Positions 1-3,021 of a DNA stretch of 20,000 bases are shown in pieces. The notes under the pieces are model-generated. The model made no database searches, had not been told where the DNA came from, and worked only from the letters and a program-made list of their open reading frames with translations. Origin of the DNA: an uncultured virus (IMG/VR IMGVR_UViG_3300042992_002627). Its lineage: Duplodnaviria > Heunggongvirae > Uroviricota > Caudoviricetes. Positions within the stretch are counted from its first letter, which is position 1. Each line of letters begins with the position of its first letter. A program made the translations under genes and the position numbers. The stretch lies in IMG/VR virus record IMGVR_UViG_3300042992_002627; one strand, written 5' to 3'.

Positions 1-2
1 TT

Positions 3-239
3 TTAATTTTTGCAAAGCAAGGGATTCAAGGATTTACCACTGATGATGGTGATATTGTTGAACCTAAAACAAAAGAGGAAGTGCTAGAAGATATAGAATT
101 GATTGATGATTTGTTGTCAATTATGAAATCAAAAATGCTCTTAAATAAGAAAAAAGGGTTAAAAGCCGTAATAGATGGACGATTAGCGTTAGCAGTTGCC
201 CCCGATTCAGTTAGAATAGGTGGTACGAATCATTTTTAA
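3..239 (+). CDS. Partial hypothetical protein (5'-truncated by the window edge); gene of cassette-like unit A
   Basis: Hand-translated open frame LIFAKQGIQGFTTDDGDIVEPK...SVRIGGTNHF* ending at TAA 237-239, 10 nt before the AAC of the first site core (250-252). Not in the ORF track. Confidence 0.65.
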   Translation, partial: LIFAKQGIQGFTTDDGDIVEPKTKEEVLEDIELIDDLLSIMKSKMLLNKKKGLKAVIDGRLALAVAPDSVRIGGTNHF

Positions 240-243
240 AATG

Positions 244-280
244 TTTGCCAACGGTTCTCGGCTATATTTAGGCTGGGATT
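244..280. repeat. attC-like site 1, left arm only (degenerate or chimeric)
   Basis: TTTGCCAAC-GGTTCT-CGGCTATATTTAGGCTGGGATT follows a stop codon, as at sites 2 and 3. It is followed by the loop motif AACTTTAAATTAAAACAAAATG shared with site 3. No complementary right arm found. Confidence 0.55.
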
Positions 281-309
281 ATGAAAACGAAACTTTAAAT
301 TAAAACAAA

Positions 310-639
310 ATGAAAGTAGAAATTACAAAAATTATGCAAAGTACCGAAATACTAAACGAAATTAAAAATCAATTAGAACAATTAGAGCATAAAGGCTATG
401 ATAAAAATAGTTTTAAAAGCGGTTACCTTTTAGGATATGCCAAAGCGTTGCAATTGCAACAACCTGATGTTATAAAATCGGTTTGCGGTTCGTTGCCGAT
501 TTCAAAGGTGGTTTTCTTTGAGTTGAAAAAAGGGAAATACCTTGCAAGTAATGGGGTTGAAGTAACAACGGAATTTATACTAAAAAACGAACACGCTATA
601 TTTCACGATAATGGTTATGTGATTGTCGAAAGGCAATGA
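310..639 (+). CDS. Hypothetical protein, probably composite (cassette-like unit B)
   Basis: 109-aa ORF with an A-rich leader. It reads through a right-arm-like sequence (LQQPDVIKS, compare LPQTAVSKS in unit D), with GTT cores at 469 and 481 as in-frame Val codons. Confidence 0.6.
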   Translation: MKVEITKIMQSTEILNEIKNQLEQLEHKGYDKNSFKSGYLLGYAKALQLQQPDVIKSVCGSLPISKVVFFELKKGKYLASNGVEVTTEFILKNEHAIFHDNGYVIVERQ

Positions 640-771
640 CCGCTAACGTTGAGCATATACGAAGGCAGGGCTTTTAAATACCAAAGCTCGGTTACTTCCG
701 AAAGCTCAATAGAAATACAAAAGTTGAAAGTTTGCACGTCTGCCCTGCTTTTGTATATGCATTGTTGGCAG
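640..771. repeat. attC-like recombination hairpin (site 2)
   Basis: GCTAAC (642-647), GTTGA, then arm GCATATACGAAGGCAGGGC (653-671), 70-nt loop, arm GCCCTGCTTTTGTATATGC (742-760), ATT, GTTGGC (764-769). 17/19 Watson-Crick pairs plus 2 G.T pairs on the + strand. Confidence 0.8.
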
Positions 772-807
772 TAGTGCTTTTTATTTACAAACAAAAATTA
801 AACAAAT

Positions 808-1227
808 ATGAAAATAGTAAAAATATTATTAGACGATGGAACAAGTAGAGAAGTAGGAGAAATTAAACCTTTATCTCACTTTGAAGAAAAATACCCTGAA
901 AATAATAAATGGTATTGGCAAAGGTGTTACGAAAGACAATTCAATAATTTTGAAGATGATATTATTGAATTTCTAAATGAAAGTAATGTTGAAGAATACG
1001 CAAAAGACCACTTAAATTTAGTTGAAGAAGACGATGTGGAAGAAAAAGATATTTCTGATTTTACTGATGCTGAAATTTTAGAAGAAATGAAAGATAGAAA
1101 ATTAAATAAAGGAGGGAATATAATTACTTCTAGTTTTATTGAAAGATTTGAAAACATTGTAAAAGCAGAAAACATTATTTTATTAGACAATTTACTTTCT
1201 GAATTAGAAACTAAACTCAATCTTTAG
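808..1227 (+). CDS. Acidic hypothetical protein (cassette-like unit C)
   Basis: 139-aa, Glu/Asp-rich ORF with an A-rich leader, flanked by inverted repeats at 764-777 and 1239-1252. Confidence 0.75.
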   Translation: MKIVKILLDDGTSREVGEIKPLSHFEEKYPENNKWYWQRCYERQFNNFEDDIIEFLNESNVEEYAKDHLNLVEEDDVEEKDISDFTDAEILEEMKDRKLNKGGNIITSSFIERFENIVKAENIILLDNLLSELETKLNL

Positions 1228-1245
1228 CGACTCCAACGGCATTAC

Positions 1246-1382
1246 TGCCAACGTTCCGCAGCTTGTGGTCAGTTGCGGATTTAAGCACCGAGCCACAAAA
1301 AAATAAACAATAACTTTAAATTTAAAAACAATGAATAAAAATAATTCCAAAGACCCGCAATTGCCACAAACTGCTGTTAGCA
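1246..1382. repeat. attC-like recombination hairpin (site 3), overlapping the start of the YopX gene
   Basis: GCCAAC (1247-1252), GTTCC, then arm GCAGCTTGTGGTCAGTTGCGG (1258-1278), 76-nt loop, arm CCGCAATTGCCACAAACTGC (1355-1374), T, GTTAGC (1376-1381). One bulged T, one G.T and one C.A mismatch. Confidence 0.8.
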
Positions 1383-1771
1383 AATCGGCTTTAAAATTTG
1401 AATACGGATTTAATTCTGTGAATGGAATTGTAAAAAAGAGGTACTATTTAAGCGAAATACCGTTTATGCACGATAAATGCGATGTTTGGCAAATCTTACC
1501 AGTTGTTTATGTTAGGCAATTTACTGGATTTACAGACAAAAAAGAAGTTGAAATTTATCAAGGCGATATTTGTAAATACCATAAAAATACAAGTAAATGG
1601 TTAGTATCATATCATTTTGAAGTAAGGTTTAGAAATGGTGCTTTTTATGCTTATTGGGAACGTGAAATGATGGGAAAATTAGAGCAACATTGGGATTTAC
1701 TTTCTCAAAAAGATATGCGAAATATTAGAGTGGTTTCAGATATTTTTCAATCAGCGCAAACTACGTCATAA
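1331..1771 (+). CDS. YopX-family phage protein (cassette-like unit D)
   Basis: Motif RQFTGFTDKKEVEIYQGDI...FEVRFRNGAF...IRVVSDIFQ matches the YopX pattern (QxTGLxDKNGxEIYEGDI...EVIGNIYE). Confidence 0.8.
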   Translation: MNKNNSKDPQLPQTAVSKSALKFEYGFNSVNGIVKKRYYLSEIPFMHDKCDVWQILPVVYVRQFTGFTDKKEVEIYQGDICKYHKNTSKWLVSYHFEVRFRNGAFYAYWEREMMGKLEQHWDLLSQKDMRNIRVVSDIFQSAQTTS

Positions 1772-1836
1772 GCTGTTTGCTAACTACTATATGTAAAAAC
1801 CATTTATAAACCTTAACAAAATAAACACTACACGCC
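1770..1836. other. Candidate attI-like primary recombination site
   Basis: TTTGCTAAC core (AAC at 1782-1784) is not followed by a hairpin arm and lies 52 nt upstream of the integrase ATG. On the minus strand it reads ...TATAGTAG|TTAGCAAAC, pointing away from the integrase like attI. Confidence 0.55.
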
Positions 1837-2640
1837 ATGAACATCGGAAAGTACCTCGAAATGTATTCCGACGATTTAAAGTTAAAAAACTATTCGTCAA
1901 ACACAATTGAAAATTACAAATCACAAGTGGGATTATTTTTAAAACACTTTGATAAAGTAGCAACCAAGCCATCTGAGATATCAGAAAAACAAATAAAAGA
2001 ATGGTTGCTGATGGCCAACTCAATTAACGGCAGAAAACACAGAATATCTGCCGTGAAATTGTTTTACAAACTAACAGGAAAACAGCCTTTGAAGTTCCGT
2101 CACATTGAATATCCGCGGTCCGAAAAGAAGTTACCACAAATAATTGACAAAACCTATCTATTGGAATCAATCAATAAAATACAAAACAAAAAACACAAAG
2201 CCATCATTGCTTTGGCATACTCAACCGGAATGCGAGTTTCCGAAGTATGTAATTTGTTGATTGCCGATATCGACAGCAAACGAATGATTATTACCATCCG
2301 ACAATCAAAAGGGAAAAAAGACCGCATTGTGGCATTGTCATCAAAAATACTTGAAATACTTCGCGAGTACTTCAAAGAATACAAGCCAAAAACATTTTTA
2401 TTCAACGGTCAATTTGGTGATCAGTATTCACACACGAGCTGCAACCAAATAGTAAAACAATATTTAGGAAAAGAATTTCACTTTCATCAGCTCCGGCACT
2501 CAAATGCGACAGCACTTTTAGAAGCGGGAACCGATTTGCGAATCATACAAAAACACCTGGGCCACGCGTCTAGTAAAACAACAGAAATCTACACCCACGT
2601 CAGCACCAATTTATTACAATCAATGGCATTACCAATTTAA
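1837..2640 (+). CDS. Tyrosine recombinase, integron-integrase-like / XerD-like with N-terminal SAM-like domain
   Basis: N-terminal LKLKNYSSNTIENY. Catalytic motifs: YSTGMRVSEV (R), QSKGKKDR (K), HQLRHS (HxxR), LGH, TEIYTHV (Y). 267 aa. Confidence 0.93.
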   Translation: MNIGKYLEMYSDDLKLKNYSSNTIENYKSQVGLFLKHFDKVATKPSEISEKQIKEWLLMANSINGRKHRISAVKLFYKLTGKQPLKFRHIEYPRSEKKLPQIIDKTYLLESINKIQNKKHKAIIALAYSTGMRVSEVCNLLIADIDSKRMIITIRQSKGKKDRIVALSSKILEILREYFKEYKPKTFLFNGQFGDQYSHTSCNQIVKQYLGKEFHFHQLRHSNATALLEAGTDLRIIQKHLGHASSKTTEIYTHVSTNLLQSMALPI

Positions 2641-2650
2641 AAACTCAAAG

Positions 2651-2884
2651 ATGAAAATCTTCTTCACCTCCTTTTTTCAAATCGGCTTAGTAGCAATCAA
2701 TACCTACATGATCACGCAATTAATATGGCTCGGAATCTTTATAGTTTCATTTTTAATATCGCTATTGTGGTGTTTCAATGTGTCAAAAATATCCGTATCA
2801 ACCAGGGCAGCCAAATTAATCTACGCAACCGGTGCAGGAACCGGAGCTGTAACCGGACTTTTAATCTTAAAACTATTTATTTAA
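2651..2884 (+). CDS. Small membrane protein
   Basis: 77 aa with about three hydrophobic segments, starting 10 nt after the integrase stop. Confidence 0.7.
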   Translation: MKIFFTSFFQIGLVAINTYMITQLIWLGIFIVSFLISLLWCFNVSKISVSTRAAKLIYATGAGTGAVTGLLILKLFI

Positions 2885-2898
2885 CTAAAAATAAAGTC

Positions 2899-3021
2899 AT
2901 GCCAGAAACTGAAAAAGACAACTTGATCAAAAATCTTTACAAGTGTATCGAAGAACAAAAAGCGACAATAGAAATGCTTTACAAAGAAATAGATTTATTA
3001 AAAAAACCGACTAAAAAATGA
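2899..3021 (+). CDS. Small coiled-coil hypothetical protein (40 aa)
   Basis: MPETEKDNLIKNLYKCIEEQKATIEMLYKEIDLLKKPTKK. ATG 2899 follows an A-rich leader and is a better start than 2725, which would overlap the upstream gene. Confidence 0.5.
   Translation: MPETEKDNLIKNLYKCIEEQKATIEMLYKEIDLLKKPTKK

Follow-up and report, generated by a model that had tools for sequence, protein, structure and literature searches.

The first 2.7 kilobases (kb) of a 20,000-nucleotide (nt) stretch of DNA from an uncultured virus of the Caudoviricetes (IMG/VR record IMGVR_UViG_3300042992_002627), referred to here in its full length as the window, carry three small genes on the plus strand, namely the open reading frames (ORFs) 310–639 (unit B), 808–1227 (unit C), and the YopX-family ORF 1331–1771. 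Downstream of these follow a tyrosine recombinase gene (1837–2640), small ORFs, and the large terminase. The window belongs to a tailed phage of Flavobacterium type, its best DNA matches being Flavobacterium phages; the stretch is present in many lake-water metagenomes, and one lake metatranscriptome run contains 5% of its sampled words. The element in question is an imperfect hairpin, site 3, which carries the start codon and the first ~16 codons of the YopX gene and which is laid out together with that gene as follows:

1242–1386, plus strand: site 3, comprising left box 1242–1252 (ending in AAC at 1250–1252), spacer 1253–1256, left arm 1257–1278, loop 1279–1354, right arm 1355–1375, and right box 1376–1386.
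1331–1771, plus strand: YopX-family ORF of 146 amino acids, residues 1 to ~19 encoded by the site and the YopX body beginning at about residue 21 (YopX match 2.5e-11).

Site 3 and the start of the YopX gene

In site 3, positions 1257–1278 pair imperfectly with 1355–1375, with a box ending in TAAC outside the stem on the left and a box starting with GTTA on the right. The 76-nt loop between the arms holds a leader at 1312–1330 and the ATG at 1331, as had been proposed in a first-pass annotation made from the letters of the stretch alone. The further proposal that the right arm is coding and that the GTT core is an in-frame valine codon also agrees with the translation, ORF 1331–1771 reading MNKNNSKDPQLPQTAVSKSALKF, in which the arm and box appear as PQLPQTA-V-SKS with GTT 1376 as the valine. 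The YopX domain (PF09643) is matched with 44.1 bits against a gathering cut-off of 22.4, over residues 52–141 of the ORF. Candidate starts for this gene are ATG 1331 and TTG 1361, both before the GTT, and the next GTG is found at 1418; no ATG, GTG, or TTG occurs from GTT 1376 up to the conserved first YopX strand, and the gene therefore depends on a start within the site. True starts downstream of the GTT, the outcome that the first-pass annotation had named as fatal to its own proposal, are accordingly improbable for the YopX gene of the window. The leader that it had seen to be shared with unit B is indeed shared, 291–314 and 1312–1335 being 88% alike over 24 nt. For either DNA strand, the minimum-energy fold and the centroid fold of site 3 agree on the long-range pairing, which also forms the strongest AAC...GTT duplex of the 20-kb window, at -21.4 kcal/mol.

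A family of sites with common geometry

Sites of this kind were searched for in the window and 84 related loci (640 kb) by geometry, defined as AACG followed by 4–6 nt and a 12-nt stem complementary at 10 or more of 12 positions to the 12 nt ending 0–3 nt before a GTT located 35–300 nt away. Against 221 sites on the strand of the recombinase gene, the search finds 14 on the opposite strand and 8 after shuffling of the sequence; a stricter version of the geometry gives 184, 3, and 1, respectively. Exactly two full sites lie in the window, 645/764 and 1250/1376, the latter being site 3. Stem positions 13–18, which lie outside the selection, are paired in register in 64% of cases versus 21–36% when shifted by 1–3 nt, and pairing is kept between sites of the same geometry whose stem sequences are entirely different. 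An Rfam scan returned no family for the site, its sole match being a chance one of a long hairpin to a plant microRNA model (E = 0.44).

The general site consists of a cassette-specific left box ending in TAAC, an unpaired spacer of 4–6 nt, a stem, a loop ranging from 10 nt to over 150 nt, the return stem, 0–3 nt, and a right box starting with GTTA, and site sizes cluster at ~43, 80–86, 113–128, and 180–196 nt. Ten minimal sites of ~43 nt (in loci L063, L071, L072, L077, L082, L087, and L004) share one nearly invariant loop of 10–11 nt on unrelated stems. The stem mismatches in all 221 sites are G.T (124), C.A (74), T.G (17), and A.C (5), with G or C in the left arm and T or A in the right arm, a strong asymmetry that may reflect the AT-rich codons of the often-coding right arm or, alternatively, marks by which the strands are distinguished. 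Counted for the top strand, G.T outnumbers A.C by 141 to 79, favouring the top strand as the one that is folded. Assignment of the folding strand from these counts was nonetheless set aside, since both are transition-type mismatches and the sites are related.

The hairpins fall into families that are 70–95% alike and have both flanks unrelated, and identity between homologous hairpins drops to background exactly at the 4-nt TAAC and GTTA boxes. Window 1270–1396 is 77.7% identical to a stretch of Muminvirus phages, with both flanks unlike; that stretch precedes and begins the gene for gp012, a protein which shares only residues 1–22 with the YopX protein of the window (12 of 22 identical). The right-arm pattern of site 3 was also found in four further viral contigs, and in 7 of 7 instances examined the GTT is an in-frame valine codon inside an ORF, with variable sequence on both sides.

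Starts inside sites and heads on unrelated bodies

An ATG within the site opens an ORF reaching at least 35 codons past the GTT in 73 of the 221 sites (71 in a second count), and for 32 of these 73 ORFs the 30 codons that follow the GTT contain no further ATG. Among the 141 sites of 100–135 nt, 60 bear such a start. The site-encoded heads are mostly 15–21 residues long, reaching ~45–50 residues in the long site class. Loop-start leaders are composed of 50% A and 7% G, with A at position -3 in 62%, and this A-richness fits the initiation free of Shine-Dalgarno sequences that is described for Flavobacterium (Baez 2019, PMC6847099). The leader motif noted in the first-pass annotation stands 17–19 nt before the ATG in 17 of the 73 loop-start leaders versus 12 of 318 ordinary leaders and marks a sub-family of sites. 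Inspection of the leaders by eye for a host-type promoter gave no clear -7/-33 motif in these sequences nearly without G, and no promoter is claimed.

Among the 73 ORFs, the GTT is read as a codon in 46, whereas the frame begins one base further on in 22 and two bases further on in 5, the strict set giving 19, 11, and 2. In the rare third frame, reading is mostly closed by the TAG or TAA inside GTTAG or GTTAA. The frame bias that had been anticipated is consequently present, but its stronger form, with the GTT always as a valine codon, is not; the frame is biased, not fixed, and part of the bias comes from sequence and shared ancestry. A further 44 sites have only a short ORF running through the GTT and ending near the ATG of a later long ORF.

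The proteins that follow the heads differ widely. Homologous site DNA is found in 45 pairs among the 73 ORFs, yet the bodies are unrelated by BLASTP in 42 of these pairs, and one site family of 12 members is followed by 12 different bodies. Pfam families are present in 11 of 70 scanned site-start ORFs and are of five kinds, N6_N4_Mtase (seven ORFs), C5 DNA_methylase, MethyltransfD12, PAPS_reduct, and YopX, while the other 59 match none; full-length domain matches begin 19–46 residues into the ORFs. The unrelated bodies, the five Pfam families, and gp012 support the earlier proposal that the site provides an A-rich initiation region and an N-terminal peptide to otherwise unrelated proteins.

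Comparison of YopX homologues separates constraint on the DNA from constraint on the peptide. PF09643 is carried by 87 of 88 homologues, 44 of which have no head and begin 2–6 residues before the first conserved strand (38 placed by pattern and 6 left unplaced by the pattern but plainly starting there). The remainder begin with a head, of the type V-S-K-S in 33 and of the type L-A-N-R in 11. Both types come from the same box DNA, translated in frames one base apart, as is directly visible in the window and in locus L039. The constraint therefore acts on the DNA and not on the peptide, and the head peptide looks like a by-product of it.

Cassettes and their link to the recombinase

The hallmark of a cassette was examined by comparing the 8 nt after the GTT of one site with the 8 nt preceding the next site's AAC, the two boxes flanking one gene. 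Of 154 cassettes, 114 show complementarity at 6 or more of the 8 positions, compared with 148 of 5000 random pairs, whereas the two boxes of the same site show a mean of 2.95 complementary positions versus 2.75 at random. Unit C of the window is flanked by boxes matching at 7/8 positions and the YopX gene by boxes matching at 6/8 (the box after GTT 1376 and the left box 1774–1784), while in unit B, a chimera described below, agreement between the box that follows GTT 469 and the next left box is limited to 1/8. With every right box complementary to the left box of the site that follows, each gene is bracketed by its own inverted repeat, which is the relation that defines integron cassettes. 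Sequence logos of the 221 sites show a conserved T at -8 of the left box (~90%) and a conserved G at +10 of the right box (~70%); the count of complementary positions peaks at 7/8 because these two would be opposed as a G.T pair once a cassette is circularised. Almost every body between two sites is unique, homology at the DNA level linking one pair among 154 and homology at the protein level 23 pairs among 147.

At the end of the array lie the following features:

1774–1836, plus strand: last left box (1774–1784), then a recombinase-proximal conserved, attI-like region with two short direct repeats.
1837–2640, plus strand: short Xer-like tyrosine recombinase of 267 amino acids (Phage_integrase match 4.2e-40).

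Relatives of this recombinase number 229 in viral contigs. A site lies within 2.5 kb upstream of the recombinase gene in 48 of 53 loci with at least 1.5 kb of upstream DNA, and sites are placed upstream of the gene in 187 cases and downstream in 9. In all 30 loci displayed, the cassette-specific DNA ends in TAAC and is followed by a conserved 50-nt stretch with two short direct repeats that leads to the recombinase ATG; a loose pattern finds the TAAC junction in 48 of 69 loci. Identity between homologous hairpins is slightly above background for ~20 nt past the GTT and not before the AAC, and this small excess, together with the fixed junction on the TAAC side, puts each hairpin in front of the gene of its own cassette, on the 5' side. 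Viewed from the opposite strand, the array has the layout of an integron whose cassette genes have been inverted. Many viral contigs (L010, L018, L020, L021, L025, L037, L038, L043, L049, L052, L084, and L089) end 50–210 nt before the start of the recombinase gene, as would be expected if assemblies break at a variable cassette array.

The best family model for the recombinase is XerA, at 184 bits and under the cut-off of 220. The integron-integrase model TIGR02249 reaches 134 bits (cut-off 265) with the match split in two stretches, and the closest solved structures are XerA-type, IntI4 again matching in two stretches. By these matches the recombinase is not an integron integrase. The tRNA genes found directly 3' of the recombinase gene in L012 (5903–6162) and L071 (4876–6928), in the latter with one lying 93 nt past the stop codon, form a separate observation on its surroundings. 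In the window itself, the small ORF directly 3' of the recombinase gene (2651–2884) has 71% DNA identity to genes of the Flavobacterium phages hattifnatt and snusmum, and a third, weaker instance of the right-box repeat stands at its beginning (2666–2688). A 17-nt inverted repeat, 1623–1639 and 1799–1815 (94% complementary), ties the YopX coding region to the recombinase-proximal stretch and may be due to chance.

Natural breakpoints in lake metagenomes

Contigs of four lake metagenomes were compared with window positions 1–3000. They depart from the window sequence at the left boxes (643/644, 648, and 1781) and at the right boxes (464/472 and 1368/1375/1377). The recombinase region 1781–3000, with 13–17 differences, runs into unlike DNA at 1781 in contigs X9 and X21, and the YopX body 1375–1785, with 23 differences, is preceded by 25 unlike letters. 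Given breakpoints at left and right boxes alike, both boxes are exchange points among close relatives. Some lake contigs also join 782/786 to 1239 and 1396 to 1757, retaining the unit C and YopX boxes with the bodies gone; these joints were not used as evidence, their sides being short (24–28 letters) and the letters between them undetermined.

Units B and C and sites 1 and 2

The upstream part of the window contains one intact site and the remains of others:

242–280, plus strand: broken "site 1", with a left box ending in CAAC (242–252), a spacer, and an orphan left arm; 246–263 resembles 1246–1263, and the stretch is not called as a site.
291–336, plus strand: two stacked unit B leaders, one of site 3 type that leads to ATG 310, followed by one that relatives have kept and that leads to ATG 334.
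446–484, plus strand: right arm and box of unit-B type, the box with GTT 469; the in-frame translation within ORF 310–639 is ALQLQQPDVIKSV.
310–639, plus strand: unit B ORF, 109 amino acids, no Pfam family, with a head of ~47 amino acids, a site-encoded linker, and a body not common to relatives.
637–774, plus strand: site 2, an intergenic attC-like hairpin, with left box 637–647, spacer 648–651, arms 652–671 and 742–761 (89% complementary), and right box 764–774.
808–1227, plus strand: unit C ORF, 139 amino acids, no Pfam family, with its own ATG after the site and flanking boxes matching at 7/8.

Unit B had been described as a second case of the arrangement in site 3. Part of this description stands, 437–484 being a 77% direct repeat of 1344–1391 in the same codon phase, with a coding right arm and GTT 469 in frame. 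An intact hairpin, by contrast, is not present: the left arm 253–280 belongs to another hairpin family and is unpaired with 446–484, the fold of 240–490 gives z = +1.13 and an empty centroid, and the site finder makes no call at the unit B hairpin. Homology of unit B to L006 and L008 is confined to 314–485, and in the relatives whose unit-B hairpin is intact (L006, L007, L008, and L056) an upstream stop codon is followed by a start at the ATG equivalent to window 334, not 310. Since the orphan left arm is of another family, the relatives start at 334, and lake contigs join other DNA at 298 and 322 within the leaders, unit B in the window is a chimera without a hairpin whose conserved start is 334 and not 310. 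The remark that unit C uses an ATG of its own was correct, site 2 being intergenic and the ORF at 808 beginning after it.

Sites in other phages and in bacterial chromosomes

Five sites on the early-gene strand of Polaribacter phage P12002L have this geometry, and in one of these a head of ~45 residues is read through the GTT. On the minus strand of this genome (L090, 39709–39518), a site loop holds a complete small ORF, gp57, which stops just before the return stem, so that loops can carry whole genes as well as heads. Contigs of Bacteroidota chromosomes (L091–L170, for example L119, L113, and L167) with recombinases 40–46% identical to that of the window have 67 sites that lie 3' of the recombinase gene and on its opposite strand, compared with 5 on its own strand. 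In these bacterial arrays the flanking boxes match in 19 of 28 cassettes and loop ORFs occur in 5 of 67 sites. They look like a chromosomal, rAID-1-like counterpart with another cassette layout.

Interpretation and alternatives

Taken together, site 3 probably belongs to an integron-like gene-cassette system of phages of Bacteroidota, as one of its sites for site-specific recombination, and serves at the same time as the 5' end of the YopX gene. The loop tolerates any sequence, and in about a third of the sites it holds an A-rich initiation region free of a Shine-Dalgarno sequence together with an ATG, from which translation would cross the right stem and the GTT box and continue in the cassette body. 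Such double use would cost little, because a change in the coding right arm can be matched by one in the left arm, which is non-coding, and it would leave a head of 15–21 (or ~45–50) residues, itself probably without function, on otherwise unrelated proteins. In the YopX gene the native methionine is no longer present, making expression dependent on ATG 1331 or TTG 1361. The adjacent recombinase, or a relative acting in trans where a phage lacks one, would cut the TAAC and GTTA boxes of folded single strands, and exchange at the GTT box would swap heads and bodies. The breakpoints at the boxes and the activity of IntI1 on a site of P12002L (see below) speak for such recombination indirectly. 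The mode of action of the recombinase, the strand used, and the actual translation start are the conditional parts of this scheme.

Several observations weigh against it. The fold energy of site 3 alone is not significant, with z values of -1.51 and -1.05 and 18 and 32 of 200 shuffles folding equally well, and single-sequence folding was accordingly rejected as proof of structure; the significance of the site comes instead from the comparison of 221 sites with the 14 and 8 found on the other strand and in shuffled sequence. The recombinase is without the extra domain by which integron integrases read extrahelical bases. Muminvirus filifjonk has 11 sites between methyltransferase and small genes and no match to the tyrosine-recombinase family. 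The hairpins seem to be inherited with neither neighbouring gene in 20 testable cross-locus gene-homologous pairs, one pair excepted, and the side on which a hairpin belongs to its cassette is judged from the attI-like junction and the small excess of identity. Breakpoints at both boxes are not predicted by a single crossover point of integron type, for which the use of both folded strands is one possible reason. The headed proteins are predictions of gene callers and do not independently prove translation. Finally, the recombinase may be a phage lysogeny integrase instead, or may also serve prophage integration at a tRNA gene, a role suggested by the tRNA genes that adjoin its 3' side in L012 and L071.

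A more far-reaching version, which is put forward only tentatively, makes the sites a device for shuffling protein modules. Exchange at the translated GTT would join heads, ranging from 15-residue peptides to folded domains of ~45–50 residues such as that of unit-B type, to bodies in frame, and phage populations would thereby make new chimeric early proteins acting as anti-defence or host-takeover factors, with the two usable frames and the stop in the third forming part of the design. In favour of this, the unit-B head is found on at least three different continuations in lake contigs (464, 472), different heads occur on Cys-rich bodies of similar kind, and YopX bodies are found under three kinds of start.

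Shuffling might also proceed by homologous recombination, the hairpins being regulatory modules (a stem-loop with a promoter or initiation region) exchanged without a dedicated recombinase, in the manner of the PeSL elements discussed below. The families of hairpins 70–95% alike between unrelated flanks are what such exchange would leave, loops do carry initiation regions, and Muminvirus has sites and an annotated recombination protein but no tyrosine recombinase. This account is nevertheless unlikely, as identity drops exactly at the TAAC and GTTA boxes where natural contigs also break, as homologous exchange would neither create nor keep the cassette-specific inverted repeats seen in 114 of 154 cassettes, and as the sites cluster by the recombinase and end in a fixed junction.

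Less probable still is a hairpin that acts in RNA only, whether by terminating, insulating, or stabilising a polycistronic early transcript or by controlling its translation, with its likeness to a recombination site being incidental. All sites lie on the coding strand, the top strand shows the excess of G.T over A.C mismatches given above, the start codon sits in an open, A-rich loop, and mRNA structure tunes initiation in Flavobacterium according to the same study (PMC6847099). However, action in RNA leaves unexplained why boxes are complementary across whole genes of 300–900 nt, why contigs break at the boxes, and why the sites are linked to a recombinase, and the fold is not unusually stable. 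A role in RNA beside recombination is possible and could include the tuning of expression by mRNA folding that the first-pass annotation had suggested.

Two further explanations have very little probability. According to one, the shared N-terminal peptide is itself functional as a targeting, packaging, or cleavage tag kept by protein selection, DNA pairing being secondary; short shared heads recall the capsid-targeting leaders of the internal proteins of phage T4, a short conserved head is found on many unrelated phage proteins, and the frame is biased to GTT as valine (46 of 73), but the same box DNA gives unlike peptides in two frames on homologous YopX bodies, 44 of 88 YopX homologues are headless, the non-coding left arm co-varies with the coding arm, and heads of different site families are unlike. 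According to the other, which is equally doubtful, reading through the site is an annotation artefact and true starts follow the GTT box, as might be thought from the 41 of 73 ORFs with another ATG within 30 codons past the GTT, from the in-frame ATG directly after the GTT of Muminvirus gp012, and from the 44 sites with short ORFs, which resemble ORF-11 of attI1 as summarised in a review (PMC8876359), and against which stand the window's YopX gene with no start codon between 1376 and the first conserved strand, the 32 ORFs without an alternative ATG in that range, and the headless homologues, which start 2–6 residues before the first strand, where the headed ones have no methionine.

On the reading as an integron-like recombination site, the sites would constitute an abundant system built on a plain Xer-like recombinase in phages of Bacteroidota, a phylum where integrons are regarded as rare, and their position at gene 5' ends, giving the start codon, would be a natural case of a recombination site doubling as coding sequence. 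This bears on the origin of attC sites and cassettes and on the trade of phages in methyltransferases and small early genes. For annotation, it implies that gene callers will report unrelated proteins with common N-termini and that metagenome assemblies break at the arrays. It would also provide a compact pair of recombinase and site that tolerates translation through the site.

Comparison with known systems

The closest likeness is to integrons and to clusters of attC sites lacking an integrase (CALINs), which have been reported in phages, including P12002L with two methyltransferase genes, one P12002L attC being recombined by IntI1 in the laboratory (Qi et al. 2023, PMC9892861). The systems share imperfect hairpins with boxes ending in AAC and starting with GTT, an unpaired spacer, and a variable loop, with the pairing conserved and not the sequence; the box after the GTT matches the box closing the same cassette, and the cassettes hold one gene each, many of them DNA methyltransferases. 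Geometry and the matching of core and inverse core are thus those of attC. Membership in the IntI clade and a divergent intI with attC sites at gene 3' ends are not seen: the 267-residue Xer-like enzyme is without the IntI-specific insertion, and its gene is co-directional with and downstream of the array, whereas classical intI is divergent and next to attI. The fixed junction is on the TAAC side and the hairpin is 5' of its own gene here, in contrast to classical attC sites, which follow their genes on the 3' side. At 10–11 nt the boxes exceed those of classical attC in length, the spacer is lopsided, at 4–6 nt versus 0–3 nt, and the loop can hold a start codon or even a head of ~45 residues. 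With two full and two partial sites in 1.8 kb and no IntI, the window resembles a CALIN when judged by geometry, while CALINs are defined by IntegronFinder and HattCI. For Bacteroidota, the IntegronFinder 2.0 paper lists only In0 elements and one complete integron (PMC9024848). No publication was found on start codons or coding arms in phage attC-like sites, although the supplements of Qi 2023 and of the rAID-1 preprint may hold site sequences.

The rAID-1 clusters of gut Bacteroidales combine a XerD-family recombinase with long arrays of small AT-rich genes and intergenic repeats reminiscent of integrons (Ross et al., 10.1101/471110). They are delimited there by a XerD-like recombinase more than 44% identical to a B. 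fragilis protein and located 5' of at least two co-directional genes of low GC content. A recombinase of Xer type beside an array of small genes and a host phylum of Bacteroidota are common to both systems. The rAID-1 clusters differ in being chromosomal, in having the recombinase at the 5' end of the array with co-directional genes downstream, and in their immunity cargo, whereas the phage recombinase is at the 3' end of the array. The passages of the preprint that were compared describe no hairpin anatomy, in-site start codon, or fused head.

The PeSL stem-loops of T4-type phages place a conserved stem-loop and expression signals before variable small genes and are associated with modular shuffling (PMC2839356, PMC4122927). 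Unlike the sites described here, they are thought to act by homologous recombination, and their abstracts mention no cassette-specific inverted boxes, adjacent recombinase, or coding arm.

A precedent for translation across a recombination site is attI1 of class 1 integrons, where ORF-11 (or ORF-18) crosses the crossover point and lends an initiation region to cassettes lacking their own, and where N-terminal fusions of cassette genes also occur, as related in the review cited above (PMC8876359). There too, a recombination site combines an initiation region with an ORF over the crossover, and the GTTRRRY core often gives a TAG stop in one frame. In attI1, however, a single fixed site encodes a short coupling peptide behind a Shine-Dalgarno sequence, whereas in the phages it is the repeated attC-like sites themselves that carry the start, with no Shine-Dalgarno sequence before it, and the ORF commonly goes on to encode the protein body.

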